DNA from: an uncultured Deferribacteres bacterium | GTDB taxonomy: Bacteria > Zhuqueibacterota > Zhuqueibacteria > Zhuqueibacterales > Geothermadaptataceae | Assembly (NCBI GenBank): GCA_964014485.1 | Contig: CAXHAT010000033.1 | Location: 1 to 49,342, forward strand | Length of the DNA stretch: 49,342 nt | Reading direction: 5' to 3' | Shown here: positions 47,885-48,957 of the stretch, one piece after another | How the letters are laid out: each line of letters begins with the position of its first letter | Numbering within the stretch: position 1 is the first letter of the stretch | Made by a program: the position numbers and the translations under genes | The notes under the pieces: model-generated | Databases searched by the model: none | What the model was told of the DNA's origin: nothing | The model's input: only the letters and a program-made list of their open reading frames with translations

Positions 47885-48445
47885 ATGAGTACCTTACCGG
47901 GCTTCACGGCGGAGGCTATCTTCTCTTATAGGAATAATTTTCATGCTCTGAATACAGTAGAACAGCATGATATGTTTCTTGATAGGCATCGGATAGTTCC
48001 ACAGATAGGCATACCGGATATACCAGTCTACGGCAATTACTGCGGGCCAGGTCATGGCGATTCTACATTTCAAAAACCACCAGTAGATGCGGTTGACGCA
48101 GTCTGTAAGAGACATGATTGGTGCTACAGTGAAAATGGGCTGGGCCGCCATCACTGCACATGTGAGCGAAAACTACTCTCAGAAATGTTTACCGCCATAT
48201 CATCAACTAAGACGTCTTTTGCAGGAAAAGTAGCGGGACGAGCTATCATGCAAGTATTTGCAGTCAAGCCGTGCGTGTGTCAACGTTGGGTAACATTTCG
48301 CTATCCATGCACGAAATGGTGTAAAAAGCGTGTCGGATGGTGGCGTGCTAAACGTACTGTCTATTATCCATGCGGTGTCAGATACTGCACCTATCGTCGA
48401 CGACATACATTTCCCGGCGTAGGAGGCCGAAGCATTTTTTGTTAA
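47885..48445 (+). CDS. LPGFxAE-leader protein carrying a phospholipase A2-like domain and a cationic Cys-rich tail
   Basis: MSTLPGFTAEA; YGNYCGPG Ca loop; D..D..CK.HDWCY His-Asp; 12 Cys; AGGAG RBS. Confidence 0.78.
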   Translation: MSTLPGFTAEAIFSYRNNFHALNTVEQHDMFLDRHRIVPQIGIPDIPVYGNYCGPGHGDSTFQKPPVDAVDAVCKRHDWCYSENGLGRHHCTCERKLLSEMFTAISSTKTSFAGKVAGRAIMQVFAVKPCVCQRWVTFRYPCTKWCKKRVGWWRAKRTVYYPCGVRYCTYRRRHTFPGVGGRSIFC

Positions 48446-48723
48446 TACAGAAAATACTCATGGCATTTTCATATTTCAACTCTAGACGGGTGGTATTGTC
48501 GGTTTCGTAGAAGTGTTGGCAAGGGTGTTGAAATAGAATGCGGTTAAAAATTCTTGGTTCTGCAATGAAAGGCCGTTTTGGCTCTTTCAAAACAACCCCA
48601 GGTAAGATGAACAGCCCTTGCCTTCACCTTTTGAGTTGTCTCTCACCAAAATCTCTTACATCACAAAATCAGAGCAACCCTATAGTCGTTCAATTCATTG
48701 CAAAGTGAAGGAGGCAAGTCATA

Positions 48724-48957
48724 ATGAATCTTCCAGGTTTCAACGCTGAGGCAAGCTTTAACCCCAAGATCAAACAATATCTCGGGAAAAATTACTACAG
48801 ATGTACTATGCGAGAATGGAGCTTTTCACAGCAGCCTAACGAGTTGGGCGGAGGAGAAGATGAGTTCGACGAATCTAATAAGATCGAACAAATGAAATTT
48901 AACTATCCGGAATCTGAAGAGGCGATGCTTTTGGGGATACATGATGATAAAGCTTGA
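48724..48957 (+). CDS. Small LPGFxAE-leader peptide
   Basis: AAGGAGG RBS; MNLPGFNAEASF; acidic C-terminus. Confidence 0.7.
   Translation: MNLPGFNAEASFNPKIKQYLGKNYYRCTMREWSFSQQPNELGGGEDEFDESNKIEQMKFNYPESEEAMLLGIHDDKA

Follow-up and report, generated by a model that had tools for sequence, protein, structure and literature searches.

The 3' end of contig CAXHAT010000033.1 (assembly GCA_964014485.1), which comes from an uncultured Deferribacteres bacterium, raises the question of why two neighbouring open reading frames (ORFs) encoding otherwise unrelated proteins should begin with the same short motif. The stretch analysed here, hereafter the window, has 49,342 nt and is the entire contig (C33) of a parent assembly of 8.4 Mb in 465 contigs. 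The first ORF (47885-48445, plus strand, 186 aa) has the N-terminus MSTLPGFTAEAIFSY, opening with MSTLPGFTAEAIF, and carries TAGGAGA 7-13 nt 5' of its ATG; the second (48724-48957, plus strand, 77 aa) has the N-terminus MNLPGFNAEASFNP, opening with MNLPGFNAEASF, with GAAGGAGG upstream. Both ribosome-binding sites are of the AGGAG type. The two proteins open with M-x-LPGF-x-AEA and are unrelated beyond approximately residue 13, where one leads into a domain resembling phospholipase A2 (PLA2) and the other into an acidic tail. On the evidence assembled below we consider it likely that both ORFs are precursors, of the pro-phospholipase or pro-peptide kind, whose common leader is cut by an adjacent protease resembling PatA of the cyanobactin pathway, and that the products act outside the cell.

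The shared LPGFxAEA start and the good ribosome-binding sites had been pointed out in a preliminary description of this DNA, and the sequences themselves together with a search of the host genome bear it out. A hidden Markov model (HMM) of the leader, built from other genomes only after removal of the window rows, found the 77-aa ORF as its top match (E=2.3e-4) among 165,389 six-frame segments of the host genome. The N-terminal likeness of the two ORFs is real and far above chance. The same description had proposed a genome-wide search for more leader-bearing ORFs, and this yielded an additional precursor, encoded at 3835-4233 on the minus strand of contig C369 (E=0.0028 with the same model). 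Its start, MNAPGFTAEVCLAK (MNAPGFTAEV...ILVPA), is followed by a core with 10 cysteines, and the gene lies 140 nt from the contig end. This third precursor may belong to the window locus beyond the end of the contig; no overlap between C369 and the end of C33 was found, and the two contigs could not be joined.

The distribution of the leader was addressed by scanning one genome per prokaryotic species with a degenerate DNA pattern for [LIM/F]PGFTAEA[S/T], which returned at least 124 loci. In 86 of the 124 loci listed the match opens an ORF starting with M-x(1-6)-[LIMV]PGF-x-AE, and the other listed matches are chance occurrences inside larger proteins such as the sigma-54-type activators of Algimonas and Litorimonas. 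Among the matches listed, the bacterial carriers include cyanobacteria (Calothrix, Aulosira, Pseudanabaena), Nitrosospira, Methylobacter, many Acidobacteriota, alpha- and deltaproteobacteria, Actinomycetota, Chloroflexota, Spirochaetia, Dadabacteria and Entotheonellaceae, and the archaeal carriers belong to two lineages, Methanoperedens and Methanophagales. Leader genes tend to come in groups, with two to five per locus in 34 of the 56 leader loci within L013-L092. A profile of 36 positions made from the 86 leaders was then searched against 1.84 billion representative proteins and matched 3,901 of them at E<=0.001 (50 at E<=1e-10), which corresponds to at least 3,901 clusters at 50% identity. 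Of the best 150 of these 3,901, nearly all begin to match no later than residue 10, and the matches almost always cover residues 1-36; the median length of these 150 proteins is 81 aa. Both window ORFs likewise have M-x(1-6)-[MIL]PGF-x-AE within their first 10 residues. Public records label the leader peptides as hypothetical proteins, Pfam and NCBIfam hold no model for them, and in the literature searched, which did not extend to subscription journals, no description of the leader, of the small protein discussed below or of the system was found. The leader N-terminus is therefore a very large family that has not been catalogued. PGF-CTERM/archaeosortase and LPXTG/sortase signals were also considered as a match for the motif; these are C-terminal signals with a membrane helix, and they were rejected because the leader motif is N-terminal and soluble.

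Alignment of the family gave the consensus MN[MIL]PGFTAEASLY...Y...[VI]xP[QA], followed by a hypervariable core. The P, G, F, A and E of PGF-x-AE are invariant in all 132 leaders taken from the loci, PGF keeps very strictly to a position 2-6 residues from the initial Met, and a Tyr is found 15 residues past the Pro in 99 of the 132. In 104 of the 132 the leader ends in [VI]-x-P-[Q/A/S], the last residue of which lies at a median of 32 positions after the Pro of PGF (interquartile range 31-33). Of 235 precursors aligned on this boundary, 207 have V or I at position P4, and position P1 is Q (140), A (79) or S (16). The boundary is also seen without recourse to the motif, in profiles drawn by offset: proline climbs from a level of about 5% and accounts for 17-38% of residues at offsets 30-32, and cysteine, in an offset profile independent of the boundary pattern, is near 0 up to 33 and then reaches 8-15%. 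Leaders average 0.13 Cys, and cores, usually 30-80 residues long, have a median of 6. The number of core cysteines is even in 98% of 104 locus precursors and in 123 of 138 representatives, as expected if all were paired in disulfides; that 2, 6 and 10 are frequent counts speaks against four-Cys metal sites being all that lies behind the even numbers.

The 186-aa protein fits this anatomy. R36-I37-V38-P39-Q40 directly precedes the PLA2 motif YGNYCGPGHG, so that IVPQ ends at residue 40, at offset +35 within a family range of 22-43, and in the AlphaFold2 (AF2) model residues 1-52 are disordered (predicted local distance difference test, pLDDT, <50). The disordered leader with the cargo beginning right after it supports the view of a cleavable precursor. 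The preliminary description had singled out RIVPQ as a candidate cleavage site, had proposed aligning homologues for an [IV][IV]PQ boundary and had read the arrangement as a conserved leader with variable cargo. All three points hold up in the comparison, since RIVPQ sits at the boundary of the whole family, [IV]-x-P-Q stands just ahead of the PLA2 domain in four of nine relatives as well as in the window protein, and the 3,901 representatives carry unrelated cores. A much simpler account would be that the common N-terminus reflects nothing but descent of paralogues, with no role in processing. Processing is indeed something that we infer rather than demonstrate, but cores that cannot be aligned, a leader and boundary kept across many bacterial and two archaeal lineages, and the tight linkage to a protease described next make such an account very improbable.

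When the 46 leader loci of more than 6 kb were compared by clustering all their ORFs of >=90 aa, the sole conserved neighbour, present in 39 of the 46, was a group of homologues of a 633-aa window protein (45-58% identity) encoded directly 5' of one to five leader genes; the next clusters were antisense shadows of the protease gene and the leader genes themselves. In the window the end of this gene and the start of the first precursor are 32 nt apart. The 633-aa protein consists of an S8 peptidase domain (approximately residues 1-290, PF00082, 3.4e-33), a Pro-rich linker and a PatG_D/PatG_C domain (approximately residues 380-633; PF18047, 7.7e-28; PF18065, 1.3e-30), the latter being the domain of unknown function (DUF) of PatA and PatG. 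In a search of all solved structures with the S8 domain the closest were PatA (4H6V) and PagA (3ZXX), at E ~4e-36, ahead of the next subtilase (1.5e-22) and of the PatG macrocyclase domain (5e-15). The triad motifs are present in the alignment with PatA and PagA as Asp (IGLIDGP), His (CRHGTF) and Ser (SGTSAAAP). The score against TIGR03895, the curated model of PatA/PatG, is 149.3 bits, far below the cutoff of 421.05.

In the leader loci themselves the S8 and PatG_D/PatG_C parts are usually separate genes (32 of 37 loci, with none fused and five fragmentary); the fused type is found elsewhere, with all three Pfam domains in 72 of 105 close relatives. The DUF is the more conserved of the two, with 47-60% identity to the window protein versus 42-48% for the protease. 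The 25 stand-alone DUF proteins have a variable N-terminal stretch, and in 14 of them a hydrophobic-x-P-Q sequence lies 0-6 residues before a conserved CxxC (alignment A6; e.g., L057, 4640-5587); in the window protein VTPA occupies residues 323-326 of the linker. The occurrence of hydrophobic-x-P-Q in both the precursors and the DUF partner hints that the protease may also process or dock its partner. Among 40 relatives of the host genome, a set including two unpublished genomes that entered only as non-holders, one listed match spans both halves (S8 and DUF) at 25% identity, and the system is therefore sporadic. A distant fused S8-PatG DUF protein of 646 aa (25% identity) is encoded in L002 (G011:C102, 1405-4186) and is followed by small Cys-rich ORFs starting MKLP...; L002 may represent a sister system that uses another leader.

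A third component is a small CxxC protein, found in 28 loci and, where the order was checked, encoded between the S8 and DUF genes (e.g., in L057 of Methylobacter luteus). Its consensus is PHRVR-LPGF-[ILV]xx[DE]E-[IV]GLGD...C-x-x-C...LNRW. The corresponding 81-aa ORF of the window is sited after the precursors and has an acidic N-terminus followed by PHRLN-IPGF-IKEEIGLGD...CSSC...LNRW. Its AF2 model (pLDDT 79) contains a mini-domain, residues 29-76 at 85-93, which encloses the LPGF. Since the LPGF is internal to a folded and conserved domain, this ORF is taken as an accessory protein and not as a third precursor; a leader starting from a TTG at 49096 was considered and rejected because 27 homologues have a conserved PHRVR ahead of LPGF and this segment is folded in the model. 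The 81-aa protein has no Pfam or NCBIfam family, Foldseek gave no match and the protein atlas returned only unnamed clusters. It is conceivable that the CxxC of the DUF and a second CxxC of the small protein share a metal site.

Where the leader would be cut can be approached from the specificity of related enzymes. In a review of leader proteases for ribosomal peptides (PMC10885120), the cytoplasmic S8 protease ElxP is described as requiring Leu or Val at -4 and Gln at -1, and PatA-like enzymes as cutting after G(L/V)E(A/P)S. The [VI]-x-P-Q boundary fits the first of these rules, and the T-A-E-A-S of the handle resembles the second. The main competing explanation is accordingly a cut after the N-terminal T-A-E-A-S that would remove about 11 residues, the rest up to [VI]xPQ staying on the product or leaving later by way of another enzyme. 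It draws on the kinship of the S8 domain with PatA and PagA and on the residues at the positions matching the PatA-type site, which are E in 132, A in 111 and S in 119 of the 132 leaders; it should be noted that E, A and S/T at these positions are fixed by the search pattern and that the family has T and A where the PatA site has G and L/V. Furthermore, the 20 residues past AEAS are free of cysteine and the cysteines start only beyond the PQ boundary, the PLA2 domain begins right after PQ, and the DUF proteins have xPQ and not AEAS. We therefore regard cleavage at AEAS as unlikely, and cleavage after [VI]xP[Q/A] as the better fit.

As to the cargo of the 186-aa protein, its sequence has the Gly-rich Ca loop YGNYCGPGHG and the His-Asp dyad in CKRHDWCY, and H77, D78, G50, C53, G54, G56 and G58 are invariant in all 10 members of the PLA2-like family. 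Pfam scores are marginal (PF08398, 24.3 bits against a cutoff of 23.9; PF00068, 29.5 bits, below its cutoff of 32.1), with no Pfam domain within the N-terminal 45 residues, and sequence matches to snake and rice PLA2 are weak (E ~0.007). With the AF2 model, which has an overall pLDDT of 61, Foldseek found nothing at E<=0.001; VIA-align gave Z 4.6 to both 1poc (92 aligned, root mean square deviation 4.2) and 2wg7 (88 aligned, 3.8), and the bee-venom and rice enzymes rank 2-3 of 48,161, yet not above unrelated rows. Pancreatic PLA2 is activated by removal of a propeptide, and the window protein resembles such secreted zymogens in its Ca-loop-like GxCGxG, its HD dyad and an N-terminal pro-segment directly before the domain. 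It differs from them in the sub-cutoff PF00068 score, the low Z, a Glu at the conserved CxCD position and a basic Cys-rich C-terminal extension. The cargo as a whole has 146 residues. PGFTAE occurs within the first 10 residues of seven of the nine relatives of the protein, and GFTA in all nine. The same cargo is found in P0134, among the best 150 of the 3,901 profile matches, and in six metagenome loci a leader-bearing PLA2 gene has a DUF or S8 gene upstream. Metagenome relatives of the PLA2 are numerous (325 of 569 matched stretches). Most of the 80 metagenome PLA2 loci that were kept fall into a second group (L143, L146-L206) that lacks the PGF leader; its proteins begin with a long basic stretch (KPKKKAKR...), and ITPQQLSLPVYGNYCG often precedes the domain. 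Neither an S8 nor a DUF match turned up in L143 and L146-L206.

In the 77-aa ORF the handle is present, as are the Tyr at +15 and a Gln at +32, and one Cys lies in the leader region. No word-sharing relatives of its core were found. Metagenome locus L138 encodes a similar acidic leader peptide (18 of 41 identities, including SFSQ) after a PLA2 gene that itself bears the leader, which makes two cases in all. Because it bears the same leader as the PLA2 ORF, the 77-aa product is probably co-processed with it rather than an immunity protein.

These observations can be combined into the following scheme. Each precursor would consist of a leader of about 35-40 residues, made up of the PGFTAEASLY handle, the Tyr some 15 residues further on and the [VI]-x-P-[Q/A] end, followed by a hypervariable cargo. 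The handle and the next 20 or so residues would dock on the S8 and PatG-type domains, perhaps with the small CxxC protein as a further partner, after which the S8 site would cut behind [VI]xP[Q/A], i.e., after Q40 in the PLA2-like protein, freeing a disulfide-rich peptide or an active phospholipase to work extracellularly. The released cargo would most likely be a bacteriocin-like or toxin arsenal; hypervariable cores, several paralogues per locus and PLA2-type cargo suggest such a competitive or toxic role. Several points weigh against this scheme. The cleavage itself is deduced from sequence and not from observed cutting, and the cut could instead fall at the PatA-like T-A-E-A-S. That PGFTAEA never varies in the locus set is due in part to the search pattern. 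The leader of the PLA2 ORF scores weakly against the family HMM (E=0.53 among the host-genome segments), and the identity of its cargo as a PLA2 is founded on motifs and borderline Pfam scores. The 77-aa ORF has SFSQ, without a Pro, in place of VxPQ at the boundary, and its acidic core has 0 Cys, an even count but an atypical one, with no cysteines to pair. The largest gap is export: no transporter or modifying enzyme recurs within ~7 kb in the 46 loci, the protease has no evident signal peptide, and the passage of disulfide-rich products out of the cell is left unexplained in the absence of a linked exporter.

Since the locus lacks a transporter, it may be asked if the leader serves chiefly in export or sorting by a pathway whose genes lie elsewhere, with the S8 protein, the DUF and the small protein acting as chaperone, gatekeeper or quality control. 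The strict position of PGF, together with the even Cys counts and a Ca-loop PLA2, both of which suggest an extracellular life, would suit such a role. The leader is however not hydrophobic and to our knowledge resembles no known signal, and the sole linked genes encode a protease with an intact triad that belongs to a clade of leader peptidases, which renders a pure export signal improbable relative to a leader that is removed by this protease.

Comparison with known systems helps to place the proposed leader and leader peptidase. The preliminary description had connected the locus with cyanobactins through a loose likeness of RIVPQ to the ILPQ motif of PatE; a connection does exist but is a different one, through the adjacent PatA-like protease with its PatG DUF. 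As in cyanobactin maturation, the S8 domain is nearest to PatA and PagA, the same PatG_D/PatG_C DUF is present, the precursor genes adjoin the protease gene, and the E-A-S motif of the family resembles the PatA recognition sequence as given in PMC10885120. The differences are nevertheless considerable. The window protease is far under the TIGR03895 cutoff; no PatG-type macrocyclase, second PatG-type domain or YcaO heterocyclase was found by Pfam in 48 of the window's ORFs, and none is conserved in the 46 loci; the window precursors have only T-A-E-A-[IS], at the extreme N-terminus, with no G(L/V)E(A/P)S ahead of the core; and neither an AYDG-type nor any other conserved C-terminal follower occurs in the precursor sequences examined. 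In addition, the family cores are long and Cys-rich or are whole enzymes, the DUF is mostly a separate gene and is joined by the extra small CxxC protein, and the family ranges over many bacterial lineages and archaea instead of cyanobacteria only. Judged by its sequences, the system would work like known pairs of leader peptide and leader peptidase and appears evolutionarily tied to PatA, but it lacks the defining features of a cyanobactin pathway.

The leaders of class I lanthipeptides are marked by an FNLD box. These systems also employ an S8 protease (NisP, ElxP) to remove an N-terminal leader, whereas near the leader loci studied here no LanB/LanC-type enzymes are conserved, the S8 protein is nearer to PatA than to generic subtilisins, and the handle is PGFTAEASLY; the Leu/Val at -4 and Gln at -1 of ElxP, for which PMC10885120 is again the source, match [VI]-x-P-Q. 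Prochlorosin/Nif11-type and cone-snail precursors resemble the family in having paralogues with one leader and unrelated cores. Conotoxin cores have paired cysteines, as do the cores of the leader family. The family differs from prochlorosin/Nif11 systems in having no linked ProcM-like enzyme or PCAT exporter in the 46 loci and in its protease family, and from animal toxin precursors in that its leader is not a Sec signal. Of the two labels offered by the preliminary description, that of a RiPP (a peptide made on the ribosome and modified after translation) fits the layout of leader and variable core and is not supported in the strict sense, as no modifying enzyme is conserved near the loci (one may be encoded elsewhere, or disulfides may be the only modification). 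The label of polymorphic toxin is not supported, as the window ORFs show no known trafficking domain of the type V, VI or VII secretion system kind and no recognisable immunity gene.

The locus comprises four co-directional genes at the 3' end of the window (Table 1), and the contig stops 91 nt past the last of them. Elsewhere in the window Pfam identified genes for respiratory complex I, lipoate and other housekeeping functions, toxin-antitoxin genes and two proteins with sorting domains of the type IX secretion system. A cargo signal of a contractile injection system, guessed from ORF sizes, was dropped once Pfam had shown these respiratory and housekeeping genes. The complex I (nuo-like) genes at 16200-31170 are broken up by unrelated small genes encoding a BrnT toxin, a RelB-like antitoxin, a C2-domain protein and a PD-(D/E)XK nuclease, the last between the NuoG-like and NuoH genes. 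Directly 5' of the protease gene lies a 643-aa ORF (44003-45934, plus strand) with HEAT repeats at residues 465-547; its N-terminal 300 or so residues have no Pfam match and contain HPRDWHDDRFGGGKHENDAEG. Upstream of the locus, at 39986-43436 (plus strand), are genes for a Ser/Thr protein kinase of 643 aa and for a sigma-54 activator of the GAF-AAA-HTH type (499 aa). A sigma-54 promoter pattern had four matches in the window, none near the precursor genes, and shuffled sequences gave more; scans of the window for sigma-70 promoters and terminators gave no excess over shuffles.

Table 1. Coordinates of the proposed precursor locus in the window
Feature	Position	Strand	Remarks and basis
S8 peptidase and PatG_D/PatG_C fusion	45951..47852	+	633 aa; Pfam; proposed leader peptidase
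Leader of the putative PLA2-like precursor, residues 1-40, MSTLPGFTAEAIF through RIVPQ	47885..48004	+	Sequence reading, family alignment
PLA2-like cargo, 12 Cys, Ca-loop-like YGNYCGPGHG and catalytic-type CKRHDWCY	48005..48445	+	Pfam, motif alignment
Second putative precursor, 77 aa, family leader and acidic Cys-free core	48724..48957	+	Leader HMM, E=2.3e-4
Small conserved accessory protein, 81 aa	49006..49251	+	Homologues in 28 loci

The upstream genes bear on one more explanation, that of an intracellular toxin activated by the protease, for instance in abortive-infection defence, where a trigger would free the PLA2 or the peptides inside the producer itself. S8 peptidases do act in some defence systems, and the kinase and sigma-54 activator could be read in that sense. 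Against this, PADLOC gave only weak generic matches on the locus ('subtilase', IetS), all at the level of domains; the genes for the kinase, the activator and the HEAT-repeat protein show no conservation beside the S8, DUF and leader genes of the other loci compared; the paired cysteines argue for an oxidising compartment; and multiple hypervariable cores suit competition better than suicide. We thus hold this explanation to be quite improbable and favour cleavage by the PatA-like protease with release of products that act outside the producer.

A more far-reaching reading, which we put forward only tentatively, is that many bacterial lineages and some archaea possess a conotoxin-like arsenal in which thousands of hypervariable disulfide-rich peptides and even whole enzymes share one leader, are matured by a cytoplasmic PatA-like protease, and are handled by the stand-alone DUF and CxxC proteins as a leader-recognition, possibly export, module. 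If the precursors are indeed processed as proposed, they would be among the largest families of ribosomal peptides yet undescribed, given the 3,901 or more clusters counted at 50% identity. The genetic footprint is very small, consisting of protease, DUF, small protein and precursors, and the one leader would carry cargo ranging from 30-residue knots to a whole phospholipase. The family would then be a tractable source of new disulfide-rich bioactive peptides, and its leader a possible tag for protease-controlled protein release. With a DUF that in this family is a separate gene and is more conserved than the protease, the loci would also give direct access to what the cyanobactin DUF does. 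Should it prove to be a leader-recognition or export module, this would be the first function for the long-unexplained DUF of PatA and PatG, and would point to a non-Sec route for disulfide-rich peptides.

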